Below are positions 2,625 to 63,990 of a stretch of 64,000 nt of DNA, one piece after another. The stretch spans positions 288,001 to 352,000 of the forward strand of contig CAVXXK010000001.1 of NCBI GenBank assembly GCA_963765675.1. Reading direction: 5' to 3'. The position numbers and the translations under genes are program-made. Each line of letters starts with the position of its first letter. Position 1 is the stretch's first letter. The stretch comes from an uncultured delta proteobacterium. Its GTDB lineage: Bacteria > Desulfobacterota > Binatia > Binatales > Binataceae. The notes beneath the pieces were generated by a model. It saw only the letters and a list, made by a program, of their open reading frames with translations, searched no databases and was not told the origin of the DNA.

Positions 2625-5600
2625 TCACGCGCGATGCGGCCGTAGGGTGCCACGCCTCAGCGCGCGTTCCTTCATCATCGCGAAGAATACCGGCACCAGG
2701 ATCAGCACGTGAATCGTTGACGTGACCATCCCGCCAACGATCGGCGCCGCGATCGGCTTCATCACGTCGGCGCCGATTCCCGACTCCCACAGTATCGGCG
2801 CCAGGCTCAGCATCACCACCGCGACCGTCATCAGCTTCGGGCGCAGGCGATGCACCGCGCCGTCGATCGCGGCCTCTTCGATCGCGGCGTGATCGACGGT
2901 GCCCGCGGCAAGCCGACGGTCGAGCGCTTCGTCCAGATAGATCACCATCACGACTCCAGTCTCGACCGCGATTCCGAACAGATCGATATAGCCGATCGCG
3001 ACCGCGACGCTGAAGTCGTAGCCGAGGAACCATTGCAGCAAGAGTCCGCCCGTCAGCGCGTACACGCATGGAAACAACAGGACCAGCGTCTCCGCCACAG
3101 AGCCGAACAGCATGTAGAGCAGCACGAAAATCGCCGCGAACACTATCGGCAGAATGAGCGTCAGGCTTCGGCGCGCACGCAACTCGAACTCGTACTCGCC
3201 CGACCATTTGAACGAGTAACCGGGCGGCATCTTGAGGTGCTGATCGAGCAGGCGCTGGGCGTGATCGACGTAGCCGCCGTAGTCGCTGGTCGAGAGATCG
3301 ACGTACACGTAGCCGGTCAGCTCGCCGTCCTCGTCGCGGATCATCGTGGGTCCGGGAGCGACCGCGATCGACGCGACCTCGCTCAGTGGAACCTGCGCGC
3401 CAGACGGGGTCGCGAGCAGCACCGCACCGAGCGCCTCAGGATTCGAGCGATAGTCACTCAGGTAGCGCACGCTGATCGGAAACCGCTCGCGTCCGTTGAT
3501 AACGGTCGAGATATTGTCGCCACCGATCGCCGACCTGACCGCCGTCTGGATGTCGTCGACCGTCAATCCGTAACGCGCCGCAACCGCGCGGTTCGGCGTG
3601 ACGTTGATATAGAAGCCCTGCGACACGCGCTCGGCGAATACTCCGCGCGTGCCCGGCATACTGCCCAGAATCTCCTCCATCGCGAGGCCGATTCGCTGAA
3701 TCTCTTCTAGGTTTGGACCCTGGATTTTCAGCCCGACCGGAGTTTTGATTCCGGTAAGCTCCATGTCGAGACGATTCCCGACCGGCATCGTCCAGGTGTT
3801 CGCGAGCCCCGGGAAATGAAGCTTCGCGTCCATCGCTGCGACCAGGCGATCGTAAGTCATACCGGCAGGCCACTGGTTGCGCGGCTTCAGCATCACCGTC
3901 GTATCGAACATGTCCATCGGCGCGTTGTCGGTCGCGCTGTCGGAGCGACCCACGGTGCCGAACACGCTTTCGACTTCCGGGAACGCGCGGATAATCCGGT
4001 CCTGCTGCTGCAACAGCGCCGTCGCCGACGTGATCGAGAGGCCGGGCAGAGCAGTAGGCATATAGAGCATCGAGCCCTCGAACAACGGCGGCATGAACTG
4101 GCTTCCGATCTTGAGCACCAGCGGCAAGGTCAGCGCGAGGAAGGCCAGGTTGGCGACGATCGTTATCGCGCGATGCCGCAGGCACCACTTGATCACAGGC
4201 CGGTAGAGCGCCTGAAAAAATCGCGAGAGCGGATTTTCATTCTCGGGACGAATCCGCCCGCGAATCAGCCACAGCATCAGGATCGGAACGATCGTCACCG
4301 CCAGGATCGACGACGACGAAATCGCCAGCGTCTTGGTCCAGGCCAGCGGCCGGAACATCCGCCCCTCCTGCGCCTCAAGCATGAACACGGGCAGAAACGA
4401 GACCACGATTATCAGGAGCGAGTAGAACAGTGGGCGGCCGACCTGCTTCGCCGCGCCGAGCAGCACGCGATCGCGCTCGCCCGCTTGGGGAGCCGTCATG
4501 CTGTCGCGGCCGTGGTTTGCAATCCAGTCGCCCAGATGGCGATGCCCGTTTTCCACCATCACGATCGACGCATCGACCAGCACCCCGATCGCGAGTGCGA
4601 ATCCGCCGAGCGACATGATGTTCGAGCTCACGTGCAGGAAGTACATCGGGATGAACGACGCGAGCAGCGCGAGCGGGATCGAGGCGATCGGGATCAGCGC
4701 CGAGCGGAAGTGCCACAAGAACACGATGATCACCAGGCTCACGATGATCGCTTCCTCGACCAGGGCGCGGCGCAGGGTCTGGATCGAATCGCTGATCAGG
4801 CCCGCGCGATCGTAGCCCGCGACGATCTCGACGCCCGGCGGGAGCGTCTTCTGAACCTCTGTGATGCGCTGCTTGATGCCGTCGATAACGCGGAGCGCGT
4901 TTTCGCCGTCGCGCATCACGACGATCCCGCCGACCACTTCGCCCTGGCCGTCATAATCCGCCGCGCCTTCGCGCAGGTCGGGACCGAAGCTCACGACGCC
5001 AAGGTCGCGGATCAGGACCGGAGTGCCGCCATGATCGGCGACCGGAATATTTTCGAGATCGGCGAGCGACTTGATATAGCCGAGCCCGCGAATCTGGTAG
5101 TCGGCGCCCGACATCTCGAGCACGCGGCCGCCGACCTCGTTGTTGCTCGCGCGGATTTTGTCGATCACGGTCTGGAGCGGCACCTTTAGCGCCAGCATCC
5201 GGTTCGGATCGAGTTTGACCTGGTACTGGCGCACGAATCCGCCGATCGTGGCGACCTCGGCGACGCCGGGCACGGTTTCGAGCGCGTAGCGGATCTTCCA
5301 GTCTTGCAGCGCACGCAAATCCGCCAGGCTCTGGCTGTGCCCGCGATCGACCAGCACGTATTCGTAAACCCATCCGGCGCCGGTCGCGTCGGGGCCAAGC
5401 GTCGGCGAGACCCCGGCTGGGAGGCGCCCGGCGAGTTGCTGCATATATTCCAGCACGCGCGAGCGCGCCCAGTAGAGATCGGTGCCGTCCTGGAACACGA
5501 CGTACACGTACGAATCGTTGGCCATTGTCTGCGCGCGAACCGCCTTGACCTTCGGCGCCGCCAGCATTGCGGTAACGATCGGATAGGTCACCTGGTCCTC

Positions 5601-5783
5601 GATCAACTGCGGCGGCTGTCCCATCCATTGCGTGTGGATGATCACCTGCACGTCGGAGATATCGGGCAGCGCGTCGAGCGGAGCATGCTCGATCGACCAT
5701 CCGCCCCCGAGCACGATCACCAGGACGGCGAGACCGACCAGAAAGCGGTTGCGATTGCACGAATCGATTATATGTTCGATCAT
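2625..5783 (-). CDS. cusA: CusA/CzcA-family heavy-metal RND efflux permease
   Basis: LDALPDISDVQVII, IEDQVTYP, LGPDATG, VDASIVMVEN, RLRPKLMT; 1052 aa. Confidence 0.95.
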   Translation of the reverse strand: MIEHIIDSCNRNRFLVGLAVLVIVLGGGWSIEHAPLDALPDISDVQVIIHTQWMGQPPQLIEDQVTYPIVTAMLAAPKVKAVRAQTMANDSYVYVVFQDGTDLYWARSRVLEYMQQLAGRLPAGVSPTLGPDATGAGWVYEYVLVDRGHSQSLADLRALQDWKIRYALETVPGVAEVATIGGFVRQYQVKLDPNRMLALKVPLQTVIDKIRASNNEVGGRVLEMSGADYQIRGLGYIKSLADLENIPVADHGGTPVLIRDLGVVSFGPDLREGAADYDGQGEVVGGIVVMRDGENALRVIDGIKQRITEVQKTLPPGVEIVAGYDRAGLISDSIQTLRRALVEEAIIVSLVIIVFLWHFRSALIPIASIPLALLASFIPMYFLHVSSNIMSLGGFALAIGVLVDASIVMVENGHRHLGDWIANHGRDSMTAPQAGERDRVLLGAAKQVGRPLFYSLLIIVVSFLPVFMLEAQEGRMFRPLAWTKTLAISSSSILAVTIVPILMLWLIRGRIRPENENPLSRFFQALYRPVIKWCLRHRAITIVANLAFLALTLPLVLKIGSQFMPPLFEGSMLYMPTALPGLSITSATALLQQQDRIIRAFPEVESVFGTVGRSDSATDNAPMDMFDTTVMLKPRNQWPAGMTYDRLVAAMDAKLHFPGLANTWTMPVGNRLDMELTGIKTPVGLKIQGPNLEEIQRIGLAMEEILGSMPGTRGVFAERVSQGFYINVTPNRAVAARYGLTVDDIQTAVRSAIGGDNISTVINGRERFPISVRYLSDYRSNPEALGAVLLATPSGAQVPLSEVASIAVAPGPTMIRDEDGELTGYVYVDLSTSDYGGYVDHAQRLLDQHLKMPPGYSFKWSGEYEFELRARRSLTLILPIVFAAIFVLLYMLFGSVAETLVLLFPCVYALTGGLLLQWFLGYDFSVAVAIGYIDLFGIAVETGVVMVIYLDEALDRRLAAGTVDHAAIEEAAIDGAVHRLRPKLMTVAVVMLSLAPILWESGIGADVMKPIAAPIVGGMVTSTIHVLILVPVFFAMMKERALRRGTLRPHRA

Positions 5784-5798
5784 TTGCGTCGCTCCCGG

Positions 5799-7280
5799 TT
5801 ACATCGCCATCGGTCCGCTGACCGTGATGCTCATCCGTCTGGTCGCGATCGTGCGGCCGGCTTTTTCCGCGGACACCGTGACGGTAAAGGTCCCTCCGCT
5901 GGCGAGCGTTATCTCTGCGCCGTATTTGCCGCTGCCCTGATCGGCAAGAGCGGACTCGGCGCGGATCGCCGCCATCCCCATCGAGGGCATTGCCGGCATG
6001 AAGAAGACCACCTGCACCTTCGCGCCGGTGATCGGAGCGCCGCTCGGATTCGAGAGCGTTACCCGCACCGCGTTCTTACCTTTCGCTGGCGGGGACGGAT
6101 CGGTGGTGATAGCGAGCATCGCTGGGGGCGTGGCGCTTTGACCAGCGTTTGCGACCGCCTGTTGAGTCGAACCAGGCGGAGGCGGAGTGTAGCCGCCAAT
6201 CGCGGCCTGGAGCTGGCTTTCGGAATCGATCAGGAAATTCGCCGAGCTCACGACGCGATCGCGCGCGCGCAGACCTTTGCGCACGACAAAGTTGTCGCCG
6301 ACGCGCGCGCGCAGCTCGACCTCGACCGGAGTCAGATAGCCGTCGCCCTGATCGACGAACACGATATTGTGCGTCCCGGTCTGCAGCACTCCGGCGGCGG
6401 GAATCACCAACGCGCGTCCTAGCCTCGGCGTGAGCGCGACCTGCACAAACATCCCAAGCTTCAGCGCGGCATCGGGGTTATTGAGCACGGTGCGCACCCG
6501 CGCGGTGCGCGTGACCGGATCGATCGAGGGCCAGATGGAATCGACCTTGCCGCTGAAGATTCTGCCCGGATACGAATCGACGGTGATCGCAGCCGGGTCA
6601 CCGATTTTGATCTCGCCCAGACGATCTTGAAAGACCGCGGCGTAGACCCAAATCGTGTCGAGATTTGCGATCGTGTAAAGACGCGTCGAAGGATCGGCGT
6701 ACATATTCGGCAGCGCGGCGCGATCGGTGATATAGCCGGTCGCAGGCGAATCGATTTCGATTTCGCTATGGACAGTGCGCTCGCGTTCGAGGCGGCGAAT
6801 CTCGCGTTCGGGAACGCCGAACAGGCGCAGCCGATCGAGCGACGCCGCGACCATCGTGTTGGCTCCTCCCGCTACGCCCTCGACGGTGCTGTCCTTCACG
6901 CCGGCTCGCTCGCCAAGTGCGATCAGATATTCGTTCTCGGCGTTTACGAGGTCGGGACTGTAGATCGTGAAGAGCGCCTGGCCGCGACGCACGAGCTGCC
7001 AGTTCTGATTGGCGAAAACGCTGCGGATCCATCCCGGAAACCGCGTCTGGACATAGCTTTCGCGCTGCTCGTCGGCCTCGACGGTGCCGGTTGCATCGAT
7101 CCGGTCGGTAAGTGCGCGCTCCTCCACGGTCGCGAATTTGAGACCAATCATCTGGCGTCGCTCGGGCGGCACTTCGATCGGGACCAGGTGCGGGGCTCCC
7201 GCGCCTTGCGCGCGCGGGTGGCGTGGCGGCGTGACGAGCGCGATCCACAGAATCGCGAAGGCAAATATTGTGCGCTTCAT
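5799..7280 (-). CDS. cusB: CusB-like RND periplasmic adaptor with a C-terminal YtkA/FixH-like domain
   Basis: LFTIYSPDL, VVSSANFLIDSES; C-terminal extension containing MPAMPSMGM. Confidence 0.9.
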   Translation of the reverse strand: MKRTIFAFAILWIALVTPPRHPRAQGAGAPHLVPIEVPPERRQMIGLKFATVEERALTDRIDATGTVEADEQRESYVQTRFPGWIRSVFANQNWQLVRRGQALFTIYSPDLVNAENEYLIALGERAGVKDSTVEGVAGGANTMVAASLDRLRLFGVPEREIRRLERERTVHSEIEIDSPATGYITDRAALPNMYADPSTRLYTIANLDTIWVYAAVFQDRLGEIKIGDPAAITVDSYPGRIFSGKVDSIWPSIDPVTRTARVRTVLNNPDAALKLGMFVQVALTPRLGRALVIPAAGVLQTGTHNIVFVDQGDGYLTPVEVELRARVGDNFVVRKGLRARDRVVSSANFLIDSESQLQAAIGGYTPPPPGSTQQAVANAGQSATPPAMLAITTDPSPPAKGKNAVRVTLSNPSGAPITGAKVQVVFFMPAMPSMGMAAIRAESALADQGSGKYGAEITLASGGTFTVTVSAEKAGRTIATRRMSITVSGPMAM

Positions 7281-44055: not shown

Positions 44056-44952
44056 ATGCGCTCCGCACCAAAATCGCACCGCGCGAGTATCGAGCCTTCC
44101 GCGCCGACGCGCGCAGTGCCCGCCCTGGCGGCAGTCGGCGTCCGCCCGTCCAAATCGCGCGGGCAGAATTTTCTCGTCCAGGCCGCGATCGCGAACCGTA
44201 TCGTCGATACCGCGGCGCTCACGGCAGGCGACGACGTCCTCGAAATCGGTCCCGGCCTCGGAATCCTGAGCGAGCGAATCGCGGCGCGGCCTATCGCGCG
44301 GATTACGATGGTCGAGATCGATCCGCGCCTCGCCGCCCGGCTCCAGGAGCGCTTCGTCGGCGATCGCCGCGCACGAGTCGTCGTCGGAGATTTCCTTGAG
44401 GTTGACCTGTCCGGCGTGTTCGATCGCCGTCCGATCAAAGTGATTGGGAATCTTCCGTTCAACGCCGCCGCCGCGATTTTGCGCCGCCTGTGCGGCGACT
44501 CACGCGCGATCGATTCGATGGTCTTGATGTTTCAGCGCGAGGTCGCCGAGCGTATCCGCGCCCAGCCCGGAGAGTCCGCCTACAGCGCGCTCAGCGTATT
44601 CACCCAACTCTACTTCGAGATCGAATCGCACTTCCGGGTCGGAGCGGGAAATTTTCATCCGCGGCCCAAGGTCGATGCGGAAGTGCTGGTGATGCGCCCG
44701 TATCGCAAGCCGCGATTTCCACTCGGCGACGAAGCGACGGTCCTGCGCACCGTCCGCGCCGCGTTTTCGGCGCCCCGCAAGACACTGCGCAACGCGCTGG
44801 GCCACGCGCTCGGAATCGATTCCGCGAAAATCGAAGCCGCCGTGCGCCGCGCCGCGATCGATCCCGGAGTCCGGGCCGAAACTTTGTCCGCGGACGACCT
44901 GCTGAGCCTTGCGCGCGAGCTCGGCGCCGATCTGAAGATAGCCGATGCCTGA
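44056..44952 (+). CDS. rsmA: 16S rRNA m6,2A1518/1519 dimethyltransferase
   Basis: GQNFL, EIGPGLG, GNLPFN, MFQREVAER, PRPKVD, RAETLS. Confidence 0.95.
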   Translation: MRSAPKSHRASIEPSAPTRAVPALAAVGVRPSKSRGQNFLVQAAIANRIVDTAALTAGDDVLEIGPGLGILSERIAARPIARITMVEIDPRLAARLQERFVGDRRARVVVGDFLEVDLSGVFDRRPIKVIGNLPFNAAAAILRRLCGDSRAIDSMVLMFQREVAERIRAQPGESAYSALSVFTQLYFEIESHFRVGAGNFHPRPKVDAEVLVMRPYRKPRFPLGDEATVLRTVRAAFSAPRKTLRNALGHALGIDSAKIEAAVRRAAIDPGVRAETLSADDLLSLARELGADLKIADA

Positions 44953-45779
44953 ACTTCCGGAAGTCGAATCGCTCCGGCGAATCCTGCGCCGCAGTGCGGT
45001 TGGCCGCGTGATCACCGGCGCGCGAATCAGCCAGATCGCGCTCAGGCGCAAGCCGCCCGGCGAGTTTGCCGCGCAAATCACCGGCCGCAAAATCCGCGAA
45101 ATCGCGCGCCGCGCGAAATATCTAGTCGTCGATCTCGACGGCGACAACGTGATCCTCGTGCATCTCAGGAATGAGCGGCAGCTTGACGCATCGCCGCCCC
45201 GGCTTCGACGGCGCCGACTTCGACCCGCGCCACGACCACATCGAATTTTTTCTCGACGACGGAACCCGCCTGGTGTTCAACGACCCGCGCCGATTCGGAA
45301 TCGTCAAGTTGATGGCGCGCGACGCGATGGCCTCGAGCGCGGAGCTGCGCGCGATCGGCCCCGAGCCTTTTTCCAAAGCCTTCAACGCGAAGTACCTGGC
45401 AGACAAGGCGCGCGGGCGCCGCGCCGCGATCAAGAACCTGATCATGGATCAACGAATCGTCGCGGGCGTTGGAAATATCTATGCTTCCGAAATTCTTTTC
45501 CATGCGCGCGTTCGGCCAACGCGCCGCGCGGGCAAAGTGACCGCCACCGAGATGGAAAAAATCGCCGACTTCACGCGCGAGGTCCTGCGTGCCGCGATCG
45601 GCAGCCGTGGCACCACGTTTCGCAGCTATCGCGATTCGAAAGGACGCCCGGGACGCTTCGCCGCGCGCCTACAGGTGTACGGACGCGAGGGCAAACGCTG
45701 CTACGTCTGCTCCACTCCGATACGCAACGTTGTGGTCGGACAACGCGCGAGCTTCTATTGCCCCAAATGCCAGAAGTAG
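44945..45779 (+). pseudogene. mutM: Formamidopyrimidine-DNA glycosylase, one frameshift (probably sequence error)
   Basis: MPELPEVE, RRAKYL; HLGMSG is broken by an extra A at 45167; DPRRFG, GVGNIYASE, C-terminal zinc finger. Confidence 0.93.
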
Positions 45780-53572: not shown

Positions 53573-54367
53573 ATGATGACGCCGATCATCGACACGCATT
53601 GCCATCTGGCCGATCCCAAACTCGACCAGGATCTCGAGGCCGTTCTCGAACGCGCCCGCATCGCAGGAATCGCGCGGATCGTTTCAGTCGGCGCGATCGG
53701 ATCTGTCGAATGCGATCGCCGCACGGTCGAAATCGCGGAGCGCCACGAACATATTTTCGCCGCGATCGGAGTGCATCCGCACGACGCGAAAGATTGCACT
53801 CCCGCGCGGATCGCGCAGTTGCGCGAGCTCGCGCGATCGCCGCGGGTGGTCGCGATCGGCGAGAGCGGCCTGGATTTTCACTACATGCACTCGCCTGCCG
53901 AGGCTCAGGAAGCGGCGCTGCGGCGTCATCTGAAACTCGCTTCCGAGCTTGGAAAACCAATCGTTATCCACTGCCGCGACGCCGAGGATCGGCTCGCCGC
54001 GATCGTGCGCGAAACCGCGATCCCGCGGGCCGGCGGCGTGATTCATTGTTTCACCGGCAACGCCGCCGCCGCCGCGCGATTTCTCGAGCTCGGATTTCAT
54101 ATTTCGTTCTCGGGAATCGTGACGTTCAAGAATGCCGCCGCGGTGCGCGAAGCCGCGCGCATCGTTCCGGACGATCGCGTGATGGTCGAAACCGACGCGC
54201 CCTACCTCGCGCCCGAACCGTATCGCGGCAAACGCAACGAGCCCGCCTTCGTCCGCCGCACGCTCGAGGTGCTCGCGGAAGTGCGCGGCGCCGACGTTGA
54301 CACTCTCGCGGAGCTGACCGCCACCAACGCAACCCGCCTCTTCCGATTAACGGCGGCGGCGAAGTAG
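53573..54367 (+). CDS. tatD: TatD-family hydrolase
   Basis: DTHCHL, GVHPH, IGESGLD, IHCR, HCFTG, ETDAPYLAP. Confidence 0.95.
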   Translation: MMTPIIDTHCHLADPKLDQDLEAVLERARIAGIARIVSVGAIGSVECDRRTVEIAERHEHIFAAIGVHPHDAKDCTPARIAQLRELARSPRVVAIGESGLDFHYMHSPAEAQEAALRRHLKLASELGKPIVIHCRDAEDRLAAIVRETAIPRAGGVIHCFTGNAAAAARFLELGFHISFSGIVTFKNAAAVREAARIVPDDRVMVETDAPYLAPEPYRGKRNEPAFVRRTLEVLAEVRGADVDTLAELTATNATRLFRLTAAAK

Positions 54368-54421
54368 TGCCAGGTCGAGGTCATGCAGGGGCTCGGACAA
54401 CTTAGGCGCCGAGACCTCAGT

Positions 54422-54528
54422 CGTCATTTCGACCTAAGGGAGAAATCCCGAGCGAAGGACCACCGCATGTGGCGTTGGTTCCGGAGCATGGACGCCTCGG
54501 GATTTCTCGCCCAAGGCTCGAAATGACG
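54422..54528. repeat. Inverted REP doublet (GTCATTTCGA family)
   Basis: CGTCATTTCGA..GAGAAATCCCGAG pairs with CTCGGGATTTCTC..TCGAAATGACG; same family as 249-283. Confidence 0.8.
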
Positions 54529-54591
54529 ATCGGTCTTTTGTCAATTTGCGCCGATTCACGGAATCGCTTCTGCGGGGTTATAGATACTGAG

Positions 54592-55104
54592 ATGCCCACG
54601 CTGGAAAAGCTCTCCCTTCCGCCGCCGTTCGAGGACGCGATGAAATCGCTCGAGAGCGAGATCATGCGCTTCATCCTGCGCAGCACGCGTGACCGCGAGG
54701 ACAGCCTGGACCTGTTTCAGGAGACGTGGCTGCGCGCATACCGCGCGTATCCGTCCCTGCGCTCGCACAATGGGCTGCGGCCGTGGGTATTCAGTATCGC
54801 GGCCAATCTGTGCCGCAATCGCGCGCGCGATCGGATGCGCCGGGCGCGCGTGATCGTGAACGACGGCCGCGACCCGGACGCGGAGGCCGAACGGTTCTTT
54901 CCGCACGCCGAGAGTTCTCCCGACGGCGTGATCGGACTTCGCCGCGCGCTCGCTGCGCTTCCGGGCAAGCAGGGCAAAGCGCTGATGATGCGCAAGTTCG
55001 GCGGGATGGAATACGCGGAAATCGCGACGGCGCTCAAATGTTCCCAGGAGAGCGCGCGGGCCAGCGTGTACCAGGCGCTCAAGAAGTTGAAGGCATCGCA
55101 ATGA
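54592..55104 (+). CDS. ECF RNA polymerase sigma factor
   Basis: Sigma2 region DLFQETWLRAYRAYP..LRPWVFSIAAN; sigma4 region ALAALP.KQ..YAEIA.ALKCS..SARA.V.QALKKL. Confidence 0.92.
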   Translation: MPTLEKLSLPPPFEDAMKSLESEIMRFILRSTRDREDSLDLFQETWLRAYRAYPSLRSHNGLRPWVFSIAANLCRNRARDRMRRARVIVNDGRDPDAEAERFFPHAESSPDGVIGLRRALAALPGKQGKALMMRKFGGMEYAEIATALKCSQESARASVYQALKKLKASQ

Positions 55105-55922
55105 AAACCACCAATCAGAACAAGCAGATGGAAGCATCGAAAGAATTTGACGATCGCGACGTCGAGGCGCTGGTGCGCGCCGCGCATCCGGGAATCCGCC
55201 GCGCGATGAAGATTCTGCGGCGTCCCGAGGCGCGGATCGGAATCGTTGCGTCGCCGGTCGGACAACTGCTGGTGGCCGAGGGTCCGCACGGTTTTGCGAC
55301 GATCCATTTTCTCTCGTCCAGCGACGCCGAGCGTCCGCTTGAAAAGCTGCGGCGTAAATTCGATCTGCTCGAGAATGAAACCTGGCGCGCGGATACCGTC
55401 CGCGAGCTCGGGCGATATTTCGGCGGCGACTTCTCGGTGCTCGCTCACGAGGTCGATCTGGTGATGGTCGAAAGCGAGTTTCAGCGCCGCGCGCTGATGC
55501 GGCTGCGCGAGGTTCCGATCGGCTCGGTGATCACCTACCAGGGATTGGCCACGGCGGTTGGAGAGCCCGACGCGCAGCGCGCGATCGGCAACACGATGGC
55601 GTCGAATCCGATCCCGATCTTCATCCCGTGCCATCGCGTAATTCGCTCCGACGGAACCATCGGGAATTACGGCGGCGGGGTCAAGAACAAGATCACGCTG
55701 TTGCGCAACGAAGGATTCGCGCTCGGCCCGAGTGCGCGGATGCCGTCGAACCTCAGGATGCCGGCGTCGGCGGTGATGGGGCATCGGCATACGCATATCT
55801 ACTGCCGGCCGGATTGCAGCGCGGCGAAGCGCGCCGACCCGCGCCGCTCATTGATCTTCGCCGACGCCCGCCACGCGCGCGCCGCAGGCCTGCGCGCCTG
55901 CAAGCTATGCAAGCCCGGCTGA
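55101..55922 (+). CDS. ogt: O6-methylguanine-DNA methyltransferase with a C-terminal Ada Zn-binding domain
   Basis: SPVG, FQRRAL..VP.G..ITY, active site IPCHRVI; C-terminal IYCRPDC..GLRACKLCKP; ATGA overlap with the sigma gene. Confidence 0.9.
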   Translation: MKTTNQNKQMEASKEFDDRDVEALVRAAHPGIRRAMKILRRPEARIGIVASPVGQLLVAEGPHGFATIHFLSSSDAERPLEKLRRKFDLLENETWRADTVRELGRYFGGDFSVLAHEVDLVMVESEFQRRALMRLREVPIGSVITYQGLATAVGEPDAQRAIGNTMASNPIPIFIPCHRVIRSDGTIGNYGGGVKNKITLLRNEGFALGPSARMPSNLRMPASAVMGHRHTHIYCRPDCSAAKRADPRRSLIFADARHARAAGLRACKLCKPG

Positions 55923-56237
55923 GTTGGGATTGAGCAGCACGCATCGCTCGACCAGCCGGCCAATCAGCCATCAACCGCCTATGGCAGAAGGAAACAATCT
56001 GCCAGTGGTGGCGGACGGCTCGTCCGCCTCTCCCCGCGAGAAGAGCCCATCGATAGTCGGCGAAGCGCGATCAGAAATGACCGGTGACGCCGATCCTCCT
56101 AAGAAACAGGATTGAGGATTCGTGGCACAGGCTTCAGCCTGTGCTGCTCACCCCGGGCACAGAGCAGAATCAATTCATAGAGGCGCATCGCGACGCGCCC
56201 GTCTTCGCAGTCCTCTGCCGGATACCCTCTCCCTCCG

Positions 56238-56447
56238 GATGATGTCGATTTTCTCGCGAATGCCCCCAGGATGTCATCCTGAGCCGTAGGCGAAGGATCT
56301 CCGCGAAGCGATTAGTGCAACTCTTCTGGGCGATTCGCACTAATCGCTTCGCGGAGATCCTTCACAGAGCCCGTCCTGAGCAACGCCGAAAGGGGGCAGC
56401 CTTCGTTCAGGATGACGGACAAGAATTCGGCATTTATCGAGAGCCTC
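56238..56447. mobile_element. MITE-like insertion (210 bp) in a REP loop, degraded TIRs
   Basis: Flanked by CTCCG direct repeats (56233-56237, 56448-56452); removing it restores GATACCCTCTCCCTCCGGGAGAGGG as at 51340; ends match 9/12. Confidence 0.55.
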
Positions 56448-56590
56448 CTCCGGGAGAGGGCAACGCGGCGCGGCGATTGCTTTTTTTTGCAATCGCCGTA
56501 ACGCGTGGGTGAGGGTGCTGCTCTGCTCATTTAATCGCGCGGCATGCGCGCCGCGCTGAAAAATGACCCTCACCTAACCTCTCCCTTTCA

Positions 56591-56855
56591 GGAGAGCTTT
56601 GCGTAATCGATTCCATTGAACGGGTCATGCGGCTGGCGAGATTCCTCGCGATGCGCGCAGCGCGAGCCGATCTGCACGCCGCAAAGCTGGCGCTGGATTC
56701 GCGCTCGGAATGACAACGTTTGCTGGTTTTGTGTCATTCCGAGCCCGTACAGGCGATGCGGATGGTGAGGTGCAGAGTACCGAATGGCAGCAATTGCGAG
56801 GAATCTCGCCCTGCGCACTGGGCACACTTTTCCGGTAGGTTATGCAAAGCTCTCC
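56591..56855. mobile_element. MITE-like element (265 bp) with 18-bp TIRs and a target-site duplication
   Basis: GGAGAGCTTTGCGTAATC and GGTTATGCAAAGCTCTCC are 16/18 inverted; CTTTCA is duplicated on both sides; no transposase. Confidence 0.7.
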
Positions 56856-56874
56856 CTTTCAGGGCGAGGAATCA

Positions 56875-56911
56875 GAAAAGAAGAAAGACGCCGCTAGGGG
56901 CGGCGTCTTTC
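56875..56911 (-). terminator. Intrinsic terminator of the glycine-zipper cluster
   Basis: GAAAGACGCCGC-TAGGG-GCGGCGTCTTTC stem followed by TTCTTTT on the minus strand. Confidence 0.8.
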
Positions 56912-56941
56912 GTGCGAATCTGAAATGTTAACCGAGATGAT

Positions 56942-57292
56942 CTATTCGGTTTCGTTCTGCTGTTGAAGTTGCTGCAACTGCTGGCGCTGCTGTTCGATTT
57001 CCTGCTGTTGCTGCTGCACTTGCTGACTGGTCTGGGCGTTGGCGTTCTCGTTGTTCTGCATCGAGTTGCCGACCGCATAGCCGGTCACTCCACCAAGTCC
57101 GCCACCGATAAGAGCGCCGGCTGCCGGATGTCCGACCGCTGCCCCTACCAGTGCGCCGCCGACGGCGCCGATTCCCGCACCGCCCAGCGTCCCTTCTTCT
57201 CGAGTCGAGAGCGGCTGGCTGCCAGCGCATCCTGCAATGAACAGCGCCGCTGCGAGCGTGATTCCTGCGATAAGGCCCGAGCGCGACCGCAT
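56942..57292 (-). CDS. Glycine-zipper lipoprotein (copy 3)
   Basis: Lipobox IAGC, LSTREEGTL, GxxxG repeats, Gln-rich tail ending NETE. Confidence 0.85.
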   Translation of the reverse strand: MRSRSGLIAGITLAAALFIAGCAGSQPLSTREEGTLGGAGIGAVGGALVGAAVGHPAAGALIGGGLGGVTGYAVGNSMQNNENANAQTSQQVQQQQQEIEQQRQQLQQLQQQNETE

Positions 57293-57330: not shown

Positions 57331-57678
57331 TTATTCCGTTTCCTGTGATTGTTTCAACTGCTGGAGCTGCTCGCGTTGCTGCTCGATCTCCTGCTGCTGA
57401 GATTGAATTTGCGTTTCGGTCTGTGCGTTGGCGTTTTGCTGATTCTGCATCGAGTTGCCGACGGCGTAGCCGGTCACTCCGCCAAGTCCGCCGCCGATCA
57501 GAGCACCTGCAGCCGGATGCCCGACCGCAGCCCCGACCAGCGCGCCGCCGGCGGCGCCGATTCCCGCGCCGCCCAAGGTACCTTCTTCACGAGTGGAAAG
57601 CGGGTCACCGGAGCATCCCGCCACCAGAAAAAGAACAGCCAACGCGAGGGTTCCTGTCACAATTGCTGGCTTGCGCAT
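57331..57678 (-). CDS. Glycine-zipper lipoprotein (copy 2)
   Basis: Lipobox VAGC, same core, ends QETE. Confidence 0.85.
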   Translation of the reverse strand: MRKPAIVTGTLALAVLFLVAGCSGDPLSTREEGTLGGAGIGAAGGALVGAAVGHPAAGALIGGGLGGVTGYAVGNSMQNQQNANAQTETQIQSQQQEIEQQREQLQQLKQSQETE

Positions 57679-57714: not shown

Positions 57715-58068
57715 CTATTCCGTTTCATTCTGTTGCTTGAGCTGTTGAATTTGTTGGCGCTGCTGTTCGAGCTGCTGCTGCTGCGACTGAATCTGGGATT
57801 GCGTCTGCGCGTTGGCATTCTCCTGATTCTGCATCGAGTTTCCGACCGCAAACCCGGTCACGCCTCCAAGCGCGCCGCCGATTGCCGCGCCGGCGCCGGG
57901 AGCTCCCACCGCCGCACCGATAATCGCGCCGGTCGCCGCGCCAAGGCCTCCGCCAATCAGGGTGCCTTTTTCACGGGTTGAGAGTGGCTGTCCACTGCAC
58001 CCGGTCATTACTCCGAGCGCAATTGCCATTAGAATCACGGTTAAGGTTTTAGTTGCGAATTGCAGCAC
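57715..58068 (-). CDS. Glycine-zipper lipoprotein (copy 1)
   Basis: GGAGGAGG RBS, GTG start, lipobox MTGC, ends NETE. Confidence 0.85.
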   Translation of the reverse strand: MLQFATKTLTVILMAIALGVMTGCSGQPLSTREKGTLIGGGLGAATGAIIGAAVGAPGAGAAIGGALGGVTGFAVGNSMQNQENANAQTQSQIQSQQQQLEQQRQQIQQLKQQNETE

Positions 58069-62820: not shown

Positions 62821-63263
62821 GCCATCCGTCCTTTTTCGTTGAGCAGCACCGAGGTTATCGCTTGCCGCGTCAGCAGCTCGCCGGTGGCGGCGTCGCGGGT
62901 TTCGTATTCGAGGGTGAAATAAAACTTGCCGCGCTTGTGCGCCGCGTCGGTGATCACGCCATCGACGCGCACCGCCTGCCCCGCGCGCATCGGCGCATGA
63001 TACTCGCACCAATGTTTCGCGTGCACTCCCCCTTTGCCGCCCTTGAAATGTTTCGTGATGAGTAGCGCGTAATCGAGCAGGCGCATCGTTGGCGGAGCGA
63101 TCGCGTTCTCTCCGGCATGCAGCAGATTCCTGCTGCCGATCGCGCGTGTGAACGCGCCGATCTGCTCGGCCGAGACGATGTAGAAGATCGGACCGAGCCG
63201 CATCCCTTCGCGGACGTTCTCCGCGCGCATCTCGAGCCGGGCTTCGCCGTCGTCTGCGCTCAT
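62817..63263 (-). CDS. MaoC/FAS1-like dehydratase partner subunit
   Basis: I.AF.RAIG..N, IAPPT, VHA..EYHAP.RAG, KRGK; 4-bp overlap with the next gene. Confidence 0.72.
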   Translation of the reverse strand: MSADDGEARLEMRAENVREGMRLGPIFYIVSAEQIGAFTRAIGSRNLLHAGENAIAPPTMRLLDYALLITKHFKGGKGGVHAKHWCEYHAPMRAGQAVRVDGVITDAAHKRGKFYFTLEYETRDAATGELLTRQAITSVLLNEKGRMA

Positions 63264-63321
63264 CTTGTTGATCCTCTGATTTGATCCCGGAACGCGGTCA
63301 TGGCAGATTCTGCGCACTCCG

Positions 63322-63990
63322 ATGCCGTATTCAACCGTACCATATGCGCGCGCCGCGCGGATGCATCTCGCGCGCGTCGATCCGGTGATGGCGGCGATTA
63401 TCGCCAAGGTCGGCGCGTGCCAGATCGTGCAGCGCCGCGAGCGCTTTCGGGCGCTCGCCCGCGCGATCATTTTTCAACAACTCGCCGGAGCCGCCGCCAC
63501 CGCGATCTACGGCCGGGTGGTTGGACTCTATCCGGGCCGCGCGTTTCCGCATCCTACCCAGATTCTCGCCACTCCCGACGCGATTCTGCGCAAGGCTGGA
63601 CTCTCGGCCAAGAAGGCGCTCTACATCAAGGACCTCGCGACGCACGTCGAAAAAAAGATTCTCAACTTTCATCGCTTCGCGCGCATGACCGATGAGGAAG
63701 TCATCGCCGACCTGACGCGCGTAAAAGGGATCGGGCGATGGACCGCCGAGATGTTCCTGATGTTCAATCTCGCGCGCCCCGATGTTCTGCCTGTAGACGA
63801 CCTGGGCGTGCGCAACGCCGTCGGACGCGCGTACTCGATGCGCAAGCCGCCGACGCCGAAAGAGTTGCGCGTCTTCGGACAGCGATGGAGCCCCTACCGG
63901 ACCGCGGCCGCATGGTACCTGTGGAAAAGCCTCGAGATCAAAACGCCCGGCACTGTGGATAGAAAGCCCGCGCCGCGCCAGCACCGCTAG
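63322..63990 (+). CDS. alkA: DNA-3-methyladenine glycosylase II (AlkA family, HhH-GPD)
   Basis: AIIFQQL, GLS..K, VKGIGRWTAEM.LMF.L.RPDVLPVDDLG, WSPYRT.A.WYLW. Confidence 0.9.
   Translation: MPYSTVPYARAARMHLARVDPVMAAIIAKVGACQIVQRRERFRALARAIIFQQLAGAAATAIYGRVVGLYPGRAFPHPTQILATPDAILRKAGLSAKKALYIKDLATHVEKKILNFHRFARMTDEEVIADLTRVKGIGRWTAEMFLMFNLARPDVLPVDDLGVRNAVGRAYSMRKPPTPKELRVFGQRWSPYRTAAAWYLWKSLEIKTPGTVDRKPAPRQHR

Follow-up and report, generated by a model that had tools for sequence, protein, structure and literature searches.

We analyzed a 64,000-nucleotide (nt) stretch of DNA from an uncultured delta proteobacterium of the Binataceae (contig CAVXXK010000001.1, positions 288,001 to 352,000), referred to below as the window, and focused on two overlapping plus-strand genes at window positions 54592-55922. 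The first gene encodes an extracytoplasmic function (ECF) sigma factor. The second, which we call the partner, encodes an O6-alkylguanine-DNA alkyltransferase (Ogt) with an N-terminal extension and a C-terminal zinc domain of the type found in Ada. The adjacency of the two genes is beyond chance, because all 121 partner homologues examined, including the window protein, keep both the PCHR motif of the transferase and the CxxxC...CxxC motif of the zinc domain, and because the adjacency recurs across phyla. Judging from its sequence and relatives, the pair probably constitutes a self-contained, self-induced two-gene module for the response to alkylation, and the response is likely to be driven by the sigma factor. 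We also propose, more tentatively, that the transferase is a suicide anti-sigma factor of its cognate ECF sigma factor.

The sigma factor gene and its overlap with the partner gene

The sigma factor gene runs from the ATG at 54592 to the TGA at 55104 (plus strand) and encodes a protein of 170 residues. Pfam models detected sigma region 2 (Sigma70_r2, residues 20-83, E = 9.7e-13) and region 4 (Sigma70_r4_2, residues 116-166, E = 5.1e-12), and the NCBIfam model for ECF sigma factors (sigma70-ECF, TIGR02937) scored 74.3 bits against a cut-off of 42.9; none of the NCBIfam equivalog models scored above its cut-off for this protein. We took group 4 (ECF) sigma factors to be proteins of about 170-200 residues that have sigma-2 and sigma-4 only, with neither region 1.1 nor region 3. 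The window protein has these two domains and nothing else, with no extension, and its closest relatives in the PDB are the ECF sigma factors SigH, SigE and SigW. The start codon at 54592 is backed by in-frame synonymous changes at third codon positions between related loci. The stop codon of the sigma gene and the start codon of the partner gene share the sequence ATGA (55101-55104), an arrangement indicative of translational coupling.

The reading frame of the partner is open for 375 bases upstream of the partner ATG, across the 3' two-thirds of the sigma gene (a 398-residue open reading frame, 54726-55922, plus strand). This explains read-through "fusions" in the databases such as P0400, a protein of 412 residues that consists of sigma region 2, an out-of-frame stretch, and then a partner. 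We read P0400 as a product of frameshift read-through instead of a true sigma-Ogt fusion. The partner portion shares 83% identity with a protein that bears the name Candidatus Acidoferrum, and the same adjacency is found in that lineage. A second candidate fusion, P0401, was rejected as an ordinary longer sigma factor.

Conservation of the sigma-Ogt pair

From a genome scan with 475 confirmed relatives, we took the 80 best loci and compared their neighborhoods. All 11 loci with a four-cysteine-tailed Ogt had an ECF sigma gene as the immediate upstream neighbor in the same orientation, compared with 0 of the 69 other loci, and no sigma gene was found anywhere within the fetched DNA of those 69 plain-Ogt loci. 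A second search, made with a 54-sequence sigma profile, recovered the same 11 loci. They comprise six loci of the Binataceae type (L001-L006), four from Chloroflexota (L007-L010), and one contig of a metagenome-assembled genome labelled Nitrosotalea (L011). The six Binataceae-type loci are close relatives that share the synteny metG, tatD, sigma, partner, lipoproteins, and we therefore count them as one lineage. In the four Chloroflexota loci, the pair has flanks unlike those of the window (methyltransferase, PPDK or GT87 genes versus metG, tatD and lipoprotein genes), and across phyla the sigma and partner genes are the only ones in common.

Searches of plasmid records with tblastn identified the pair in three further sources. 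Plasmid 2 of Rubrobacter radiotolerans (L081) has overlapping genes annotated as "RNA polymerase sigma factor" and methyltransferase, Nonomuraea gerenzanensis (L082) has a sigma-Ogt pair, and Arthrobacter sp. StoSoilB13 (L084) has a pair in which the Ogt is without the Ada domain. This comparison of neighborhoods, which the preliminary description of the window had called for, thus finds the pair kept in other genomes of the Binatota, Chloroflexota and Actinomycetota. The stop and start codons overlap in 12 of the 15 pair loci; in the other three (L007, L008 and L011), 0-4 nt separate them. The overlap is 4 nt, as in the window, in L001-L006, L009, L010, L082 and L084, and 11 nt, as annotated, in L081. 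Overlap in so many loci suggests that the two proteins are synthesized 1:1.

The locus labelled Nitrosotalea deserves separate comment. Pfam does not recognize its zinc domain, which has diverged too far but retains the four cysteines. The contig (DATLSE010000018.1, labelled Nitrosotalea sp.) places a bacterial-type ECF sigma factor and an Ogt in the bin of an ammonia-oxidizing archaeon, and we consider incorrect binning of a bacterial contig more probable than a sigma factor in an archaeon. In the tree described below, its sigma factor groups with those of Chloroflexota and Actinobacteria.

Alkylation-repair genes near the pair

In relatives of the window, the pair is found together with other genes of alkylation repair. 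In three of the four Chloroflexota loci, a gene for an AlkA-type glycosylase is immediately downstream of the partner on the same strand, giving the order sigma, Ogt-AdaZn, AlkA. In three Firmicute loci (L031, L042 and L079), AdaA, which has the zinc and AraC domains, is followed by Ogt, and in L079 AlkA is next. The Chloroflexota order mirrors that of AdaA, Ogt and AlkA in L079. On the megaplasmid of Arthrobacter sp. StoSoilB13 (NZ_AP024649.1), we noted an unannotated five-gene alkylation-repair operon (L084, 2329-5506), with a plain ogt followed by the ECF sigma gene, an extended ogt without the zinc domain, an alkB-like oxygenase gene, and tag. The theme of alkylation repair that had been attributed to the pair is borne out by this co-operonic occurrence of alkA, alkB and tag. 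In the lineage of the window, only the sigma and partner genes belong together, with metG and tatD upstream. Next to the pair, the window has no apparent gene for a TetR regulator, a kinase or a two-component system, and in the loci compared we found no other regulator conserved next to it across phyla.

Domain organization of the partner

The partner gene (55101-55922, plus strand, ATG to TGA) encodes 273 residues. The Ogt core (55239-55715) is composed of an N-terminal domain at residues 47-109 (Methyltransf_1N, 22.1 bits, barely over the cut-off of 21) and a DNA-binding and catalytic domain at residues 126-205 (DNA_binding_1, PF01035, E = 2.9e-28). The NCBIfam model TIGR00589 scored 96.1 bits against a cut-off of 46.4, and the PDB matches were human AGT (1eh6, E = 1.3e-21) and E. 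coli C-Ada (1sfe, E = 3.4e-20). The PCHR motif is at residues 176-179 (55626-55637), with Cys177 as the predicted methyl acceptor. Residues Y146, R160, N169, C177, H178, R179, Y190 and E204 are invariant across 50 family sequences and align with Y114, R128, N137, C145, H146, R147, Y158 and E172 of human AGT, which we take to have known functional roles (the Asn hinge, the Arg finger and the Tyr of the helix-turn-helix among them). At the level of sequence, the protein is an O6-alkylguanine-DNA alkyltransferase (Ogt/AGT).

The Ada-type Zn(Cys)4 domain (55761-55916, residues 221-272) matched Ada_Zn_binding (PF02805, E = 2.2e-11) over profile positions 14-64 of 65, leaving the first 13 positions unmatched. 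Its cysteines are in the motifs CRPDC (residues 235-239) and CKLC (residues 267-270). C235, C239, C267 and C270 are invariant across the same 50 sequences and align with Cys38, 42, 69 and 72 of E. coli N-Ada (1adn, residues 28-74), so that all four zinc-site cysteines of the family, including the C38 equivalent, are present in a domain whose profile positions 1-13 are unmatched. Passages of PMC4437013 identify Cys38 as the methylphosphotriester acceptor of E. coli Ada, and Cys235 of the partner is its predicted counterpart. The same source describes the A box of E. coli Ada as read by R45 and R71; R45 aligns with the basic residue K243/R244 of the partner, and R71 is replaced by Leu, Val or Ile in the partner family. 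Overall, the partner looks like an apparently competent double suicide methyl acceptor and not like a decayed relic.

There was no Pfam match to an AraC/HTH_18 domain in the partner. The protein differs from bifunctional Ada of the E. coli type, in which an AraC-type helix-turn-helix is located between an N-terminal zinc domain and the Ogt domain, in that the Ogt precedes the zinc domain and no HTH_18/HTH_AraC match is present, and the NCBIfam Ada model scored 107.8 bits against a cut-off of 345. Several features that the preliminary description had read from the letters of the sequence are therefore secure. The ATGA overlap is in place, the intact PCHR site and the C-terminal CRPDC...CKLC domain were found by Pfam and in the alignments to 1adn and human AGT, and the order of extension, Ogt and Ada zinc domain without an AraC output was confirmed by the Pfam domain check.

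This architecture is widespread. The 120 best of 1842 partner homologues all have PF01035 and PF02805 and are 244-273 residues long, and the named ones among them are from Candidatus Binataceae, Binatus or Acidoferrales. The Ktedonobacterales (Chloroflexota) contribute another large clade, with both domains in 119 of the 120 best hits to its profile. In the ESM Atlas, queried with the homologue P0045, the commonest phyla among the clusters with Ogt and Ada_Zn were Binatota, Chloroflexota and Actinomycetota.

The N-terminal extension of sigma-linked Ogts

Residues 1-45 of the partner (55101-55235) precede the Ogt core, are conserved within the family, and are a candidate for the part that binds sigma. 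The conserved stretch of the window-type extension covers approximately residues 17-45 (DDR..D.l....ar..i.RAMK.lRRPeAR). We used the motif of the first Ogt strand, [ST]PxG, as an anchor. It starts at residue 51 in the partner versus residue 10 in the plain Ogts displayed, and at residues 39-68 in the sigma-linked Ogts in which the anchor was found (the window, L006, two database homologues, L007-L011, Rubrobacter and Arthrobacter). The sigma-linked Ogt of Nonomuraea has APIG about 30 residues in. All of the sigma-linked Ogts displayed have an extension and none of the plain Ogts displayed do. Both kinds are present in the Arthrobacter operon, where the extension is confined to the gene that follows sigma. 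Because this operon also has a plain Ogt, the extension is apparently not needed for repair as such.

The extensions of Chloroflexota and Actinobacteria align with each other (LLxxLRxLAxxxAPxxLxxRxLxxxGLADRY), and the window type differs from them in sequence. Between the window and Chloroflexota partners, identical positions number 2-10 of 45 in the extension, 41-45 of 85 in the catalytic domain, and 17-20 of 50 in the zinc domain; the sigma factors are 24-29% identical. An extension that is the least conserved part, together with similarly divergent sigma factors, fits a co-evolving interface. The Ada zinc domain is probably an added sensor and not the essential link to sigma, because the ECF122-type operon of Arthrobacter has an extended, sigma-linked Ogt without it. 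The earlier estimate of about 40 residues for the extension is thus close to the 45 or so that we obtain by comparison with plain Ogts. The suggestion that the Ada sensor provides the connection to sigma fares less well: the domain is present in the window partner, but it is the extension, and not the zinc domain, that is common to all of the sigma-linked Ogts displayed.

A promoter-like motif upstream of the sigma gene

We aligned the DNA upstream of the sigma gene in the window and the six Binataceae-type loci. They share a sharply conserved block, CGATTCACGRAA-N-GGGGTTATAG, whose end is 8 nt from the sigma ATG and which shows few or no differences among the window and the six loci (6/6); further upstream, the DNA could not be aligned. 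The block contains TTCAC-N17-GTTATAG (54555-54583, plus strand), which we predict to be a promoter with -35 and -10 elements of ECF geometry. Because the block leaves no space for a Shine-Dalgarno leader, the sigma transcript is probably leaderless or nearly so. The Binataceae alignment showed no further conserved element 5' of the -35 block, which argues against a DNA-bound activator at an Ada box.

Motifs at equivalent positions were found in other lineages. The Arthrobacter operon has CTCAC-N17-CGTCTAC 5 nt before its first ATG, exactly the motif (CTCAC / CGTCTAC) predicted for group ECF122 in the supplement entry of PMC7826278. Rubrobacter (L081, 3419-3445) and Nonomuraea (L082, 3354-3380) share GTG[AC]AAC-N16-GTGTTGTA, located 0-5 nt before the sigma start. 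Three lineages, each with its own motif at the equivalent position, fit autoregulated operons.

A single copy of the block is present in the window's 64 kb, even with up to 3 mismatches allowed (0.02 copies expected by chance), and the related loci have one copy each, always upstream of sigma. This bears on the gene at 63322-63990, which had been put forward as alkA and as a possible target of the sigma factor. The gene product is an HhH-GPD glycosylase (E = 6.3e-16) with a weak match to the AlkA model (38.8 bits against a cut-off of 229). The DNA at 63000-63400 has an intergenic stretch containing GGAAC and no matching -10 element. Because the conserved motif occurs in the window only upstream of sigma, the data do not support the alkA candidate at 63322 as a target, and we rejected it on present evidence. 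The proposal of a sigma-driven alkylation response therefore stands in part, with the pair itself and the co-operonic alkA, alkB and tag of its relatives in its favor and its suggested target in the window set aside.

Phylogeny of the sigma factors and transferases

We built a quick tree of 121 ECF sigma factors, composed of the 15 Ogt-linked ones and 106 of the window's 150 best representative hits, restricted to proteins of 150-215 residues; this choice favors the nearest relatives of the window, and the deep branches are weak. The Ogt-linked sigma factors occupy three places in the tree. Those of the window and the Binataceae form a clade that includes seven unlabelled relatives, with support of 97 in the Shimodaira-Hasegawa-like approximate likelihood ratio test (SH-aLRT). 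Those of Chloroflexota, the Nitrosotalea-labelled contig, Rubrobacter and Nonomuraea form another (SH-aLRT 98), and the Arthrobacter sigma factor stands alone. Mapping Ogt linkage onto the sigma tree requires 4 changes, of which at least 3 are forced by supported branches. Mapping sigma linkage onto a quick Ogt tree of 81 rows gives 2 changes, and 1 change is compatible with that tree.

A possible anti-sigma role for the transferase

The gene immediately downstream of an ECF sigma gene (position +1) is, by a near-universal rule, that of its regulator, and translational coupling is typical of sigma/anti-sigma pairs. We favor the anti-sigma model because of the +1 rule, the coupling of the two genes, the lack of any other conserved regulator, the presence of the extension, the lack of an activator box, and the replacement of R71. 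From these comparisons we infer that sigma and the partner bind each other, that the partner acts in the anti-sigma direction, that the extension has a role in this, and that the operon is autoregulated. We hold the model tentatively, giving it somewhat less than an even chance.

According to the model, unmethylated transferase would hold sigma at rest as a soluble anti-sigma factor, likely through the N-terminal extension. When DNA is alkylated, the transferase would repair it and become permanently methylated, at Cys177 by O6-alkylguanine and at Cys235 by methylphosphotriesters, and its grip on sigma would fall. The weaker grip could come from lost sigma binding, from destabilization, or from tighter DNA binding via the electrostatic switch of Ada. 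The freed sigma factor would transcribe its own operon from TTCAC-N17-GTTATAG and both proteins would be made, until fresh unmethylated transferase titrated sigma again and shut the response off. The pool of active transferase would thereby be matched to the damage load, following the logic of E. coli Ada with an ECF sigma factor in place of the AraC domain. A broader claim is that a DNA-repair suicide enzyme serves as an anti-sigma "damage counter," each methyl group removed from DNA using up one inhibitor molecule for good and sigma being released in proportion to alkylation, and that it takes the place of the AraC-type Ada switch in Binatota, Chloroflexota and Actinomycetota. We regard this as doubtful; that judgment covers the joint claim, including the extension as a new short class of soluble anti-sigma domain.

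The transferase might instead be cargo, merely a repair enzyme that the sigma factor expresses, with sigma itself controlled by an unlinked regulator, anti-sigma factor or turnover, and with the extension serving repair (DNA binding, dimerization or stability) instead of sigma binding. We think this rather unlikely. It accords with the lack of a match between the extension and any anti-sigma family, and with the fact that repair genes are ordinary ECF targets, alkA, alkB and tag sharing the operons. Against it, a sigma factor under positive autoregulation would run away unless there were a brake, the loci of different phyla have no further regulator conserved next to the pair, the stop/start overlap in 12 of 15 loci suggests 1:1 synthesis, and the extension is confined to sigma-linked Ogts, the plain Ogt of the Arthrobacter operon being without it. 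The published reading of group ECF203, in which an Ogt is also at +1, favors the cargo explanation, since the parts of PMC7826278 and PMC8999054 that deal with this group treat it as possibly controlled by a TetR regulator and not autoregulated, and PMC8999054, a 2022 review, places it under proposed transcriptional regulation.

That published reading is one of several points that weigh against the anti-sigma model. Anti-sigma families of Pfam gave no match to partner residues 1-50 even at E values up to 10, a Pfam scan of three Chloroflexota extensions gave none, and a PDB sequence search with a profile of eight Chloroflexota and Actinobacteria extensions found no relative (the window-type extension alone was not searched). 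No natural sigma-Ogt fusion was found in a search for longer proteins, which gave 2 among 1176 candidates (P0400 and P0401), and eight longer proteins (252-491 residues) picked from the 150 best sigma relatives all have sigma domains and none has an Ogt domain; one of the eight also has a zf-HC2 domain. The sample of loci was seeded with peptide patterns of the query, mainly IPIFIPCH, and is thus biased and no neutral survey. The count of 11 versus 0 is inflated by relatedness, with 6 of the 11 loci being close syntenic relatives, and few lineages are independent of one another (the tree suggests roughly three for sigma). The clade of the window sigma factor and that of Chloroflexota and Actinobacteria are not each other's nearest relatives, and for this reason the pairing was possibly recruited repeatedly; it may have arisen more than once, or there may be a common ancestry with deep branches that are poorly resolved. 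Finally, within the 64 kb there is one visible target, the operon itself.

We also considered that the transferase acts positively, like Ada or a sigma adaptation, such that transferase methylated at Cys235 binds near the promoter, touches sigma region 4, and activates a weak holoenzyme. ECF sigma factors usually need no activator, which is a general argument against this idea. The source given for contact between Ada and sigma is reportedly Landini et al. 1998. That methylated E. coli Ada activates transcription and needs contact with a sigma subunit is stated in passages of PMC4437013, and in the partner family the zinc domain and its acceptor cysteine are invariant (50 sequences) and the basic K243/R244 aligns with R45, all in keeping with co-activation. 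But the AraC domain is absent, leaving no sequence-specific DNA-binding domain, R71 is replaced by a hydrophobic residue, there is no conserved box upstream of the -35 block, and the ECF122-type system of Arthrobacter has an extended Ogt without the zinc domain. We judge co-activation improbable. We give almost no credence to the view that the adjacency is a local accident or a gene-calling artefact with no functional link. It gains something from the close syntenic relationship of six of the loci, but Binatota, Chloroflexota and Actinomycetota show the same order, strand and coupling amid different flanks, the fetched DNA of the 69 plain-Ogt loci contains no sigma gene, and the association is recorded independently in entries of the ECF classification (PMC7826278). 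It is effectively refuted by the comparative data.

Other features of the window and related loci

Three tandem paralogous lipoprotein-like genes (56942-57292, 57331-57678 and 57715-58068, minus strand), of about 116 residues each, are downstream of the pair. The proteins have a glycine-zipper core, with a weak match to the YiaD glycine-zipper model, and a Gln-rich C-terminal tail. They are identical to one another at 76-92 of about 116 residues, and the genes are kept downstream of the sigma pair in related loci. An Rfam scan of 54000-57000 gave no match. A scan for intrinsic terminators gave nothing convincing downstream of the partner; it detected three candidate sites versus 1.8 expected, all on the minus strand, and a 3' region is rich in hairpins (z = -3.3).

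Elsewhere in the window, the fpg/mutM gene (44945-45779, plus strand) is apparently broken by a frameshift. The first frame (MPELPEVE...VILVHL) extends to about 45165, and the rest (GMSGSL... to the C-terminal zinc finger) is in another frame at 45153-45779 and matches positions 76-274 of the Fpg profile. The gene could be a pseudogene, or the break could be an error of assembly or sequencing.

Two of the Chloroflexota loci have a small open reading frame of 51-60 residues (L007, 3055-3210; L008, 2811-2993) that is upstream of the sigma start and overlaps it. In the product, a hydrophobic helix at the N-terminus precedes the conserved sequence G[AT]DSRDWRxAG[DE]WxW, and the protein could be another regulator. 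A regular-expression scan for the DSRDW motif found no such frame upstream of sigma in L009 or L010. In L010 (Ktedonobacterales), a GT87-family glycosyltransferase gene is downstream of the pair (4881-6131). Genes of this family are likewise part of the genomic context given for subgroup ECF122s4 in the supplement entry of PMC7826278.

Implications

The adaptive response to alkylation is a textbook circuit whose mechanism is known only in its AraC-type (Ada) form. Our comparison indicates that the sigma-Ogt module extends beyond Actinobacteria, that it occurs repeatedly with alkA, alkB and tag, and that it has a promoter-like motif at the first start codon, its transferases having a characteristic N-terminal addition in common. 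This comparative anatomy leads to a concrete hypothesis with defined residues (1-45, Cys177 and Cys235), and the pair is available from cultured sources in Rubrobacter radiotolerans plasmid 2, Nonomuraea gerenzanensis and Arthrobacter sp. StoSoilB13. If the transferase proved to be a suicide anti-sigma factor, it would represent a new coupling of a chemical lesion count to transcription, and would offer a compact orthogonal alkylation sensor for synthetic biology. The pairing will not surprise a specialist in ECF sigma factors; the value is in a sharp hypothesis for an acknowledged gap in mechanism.

Comparison with known systems

The sigma-Ogt pairing itself is already catalogued. The preliminary description had pointed to ECF-ogt neighborhoods in other phyla, and rightly so, since entries of PMC7826278 (Casas-Pastor et al. 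2021) describe two groups, ECF122 and ECF203, with Ogt at +1. The supplement entry for ECF203 gives a distribution of 100% Actinobacteria, an O6-methylguanine methyltransferase at +1, TetR, helix-turn-helix and major facilitator superfamily (MFS) neighbors, and no conserved promoter motif, with context frequencies of 1.44 per ECF for O6-methylguanine methyltransferase and 1.22 for Ada_Zn_binding. The window pair resembles this group in having an ECF sigma factor without a recognized anti-sigma factor, an Ogt at +1, and Ada_Zn_binding. It differs in being from Binatota, in having no TetR or MFS gene beside the pair, and in its sharply conserved upstream motif. The comparison rests on the published description of the group, and the window sigma factor is outside the clade of the Rubrobacter and Nonomuraea sigma factors (SH-aLRT 98). 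ECF203 is reported to be without a conserved motif, whereas Rubrobacter and Nonomuraea, whose group membership we assume nowhere, share GTG[AC]AAC-N16-GTGTTGTA.

The supplement entry for ECF122 (PMC7826278) describes a group restricted to Actinobacteria, with Ogt at +1 and no anti-sigma factor, that was judged "involved in DNA damage repair," and the relevant part of the 2022 review of non-canonical ECF sigma factors (PMC8999054) classes it under "unknown mechanism." The window pair is similar in having Ogt at +1 and no anti-sigma factor. The -35 element of ECF122 is CTCAC and that of the window TTCAC (TCAC in common), with a 17-nt spacing equal to that of the Arthrobacter example; the -10 elements, CGTCTAC and GTTATAG, are the same at 3 of 7 positions. 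ECF122 is from Actinobacteria without a reported Ada zinc domain, whereas the window pair is from Binatota with one. The ECF122-like Arthrobacter sigma factor is not beside the window sigma factor in the tree, a comparison made by description and tree and not by group model. The window locus is thus in a phylum and a sigma lineage outside the published groups as described. What is new is the presence of the pair in Binatota and Chloroflexota, the separate sigma lineage, and the extension as a mark common to the sigma-linked Ogts seen.

Sections of two reviews, on the Ada response (PMC4437013) and on SOS-independent damage responses (PMC7617703), mention no sigma-based variant. A search of the full-text literature, whose coverage leaves out most subscription journals, found no experimental study of an ECF-Ogt pair. 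The window system shares with E. coli Ada and with the Firmicute AdaA/AdaB (Ogt)-AlkA operons the two suicide acceptors, Zn(Cys)4 and PCHR, and would share the logic of auto-induction; alkA or alkB is co-operonic in relatives of the window pair. It differs from E. coli Ada in that the partner is without an AraC helix-turn-helix and has its zinc domain on the C-terminal side of the Ogt, and in that the output is presumably the ECF sigma factor.

The zinc-binding anti-sigma (ZAS) factors RsrA and RshA are soluble partners encoded at +1 that release their ECF sigma factors when zinc-bound cysteines are modified. The likeness is conceptual: the window partner, too, would be a soluble cytoplasmic protein encoded at +1 with a reactive zinc-bound cysteine. 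Its extension is distinct from class I (ZAS / zf-HC2) anti-sigma factors, whose four-helix domain often carries HxxxCxxC, with no family match and no cysteine; the protein has no HxxxCxxC or zf-HC2 match, and its zinc site is of the Ada type. The modification would also differ, being an irreversible transfer of methyl groups from DNA in the partner versus reversible oxidation in the ZAS factors.

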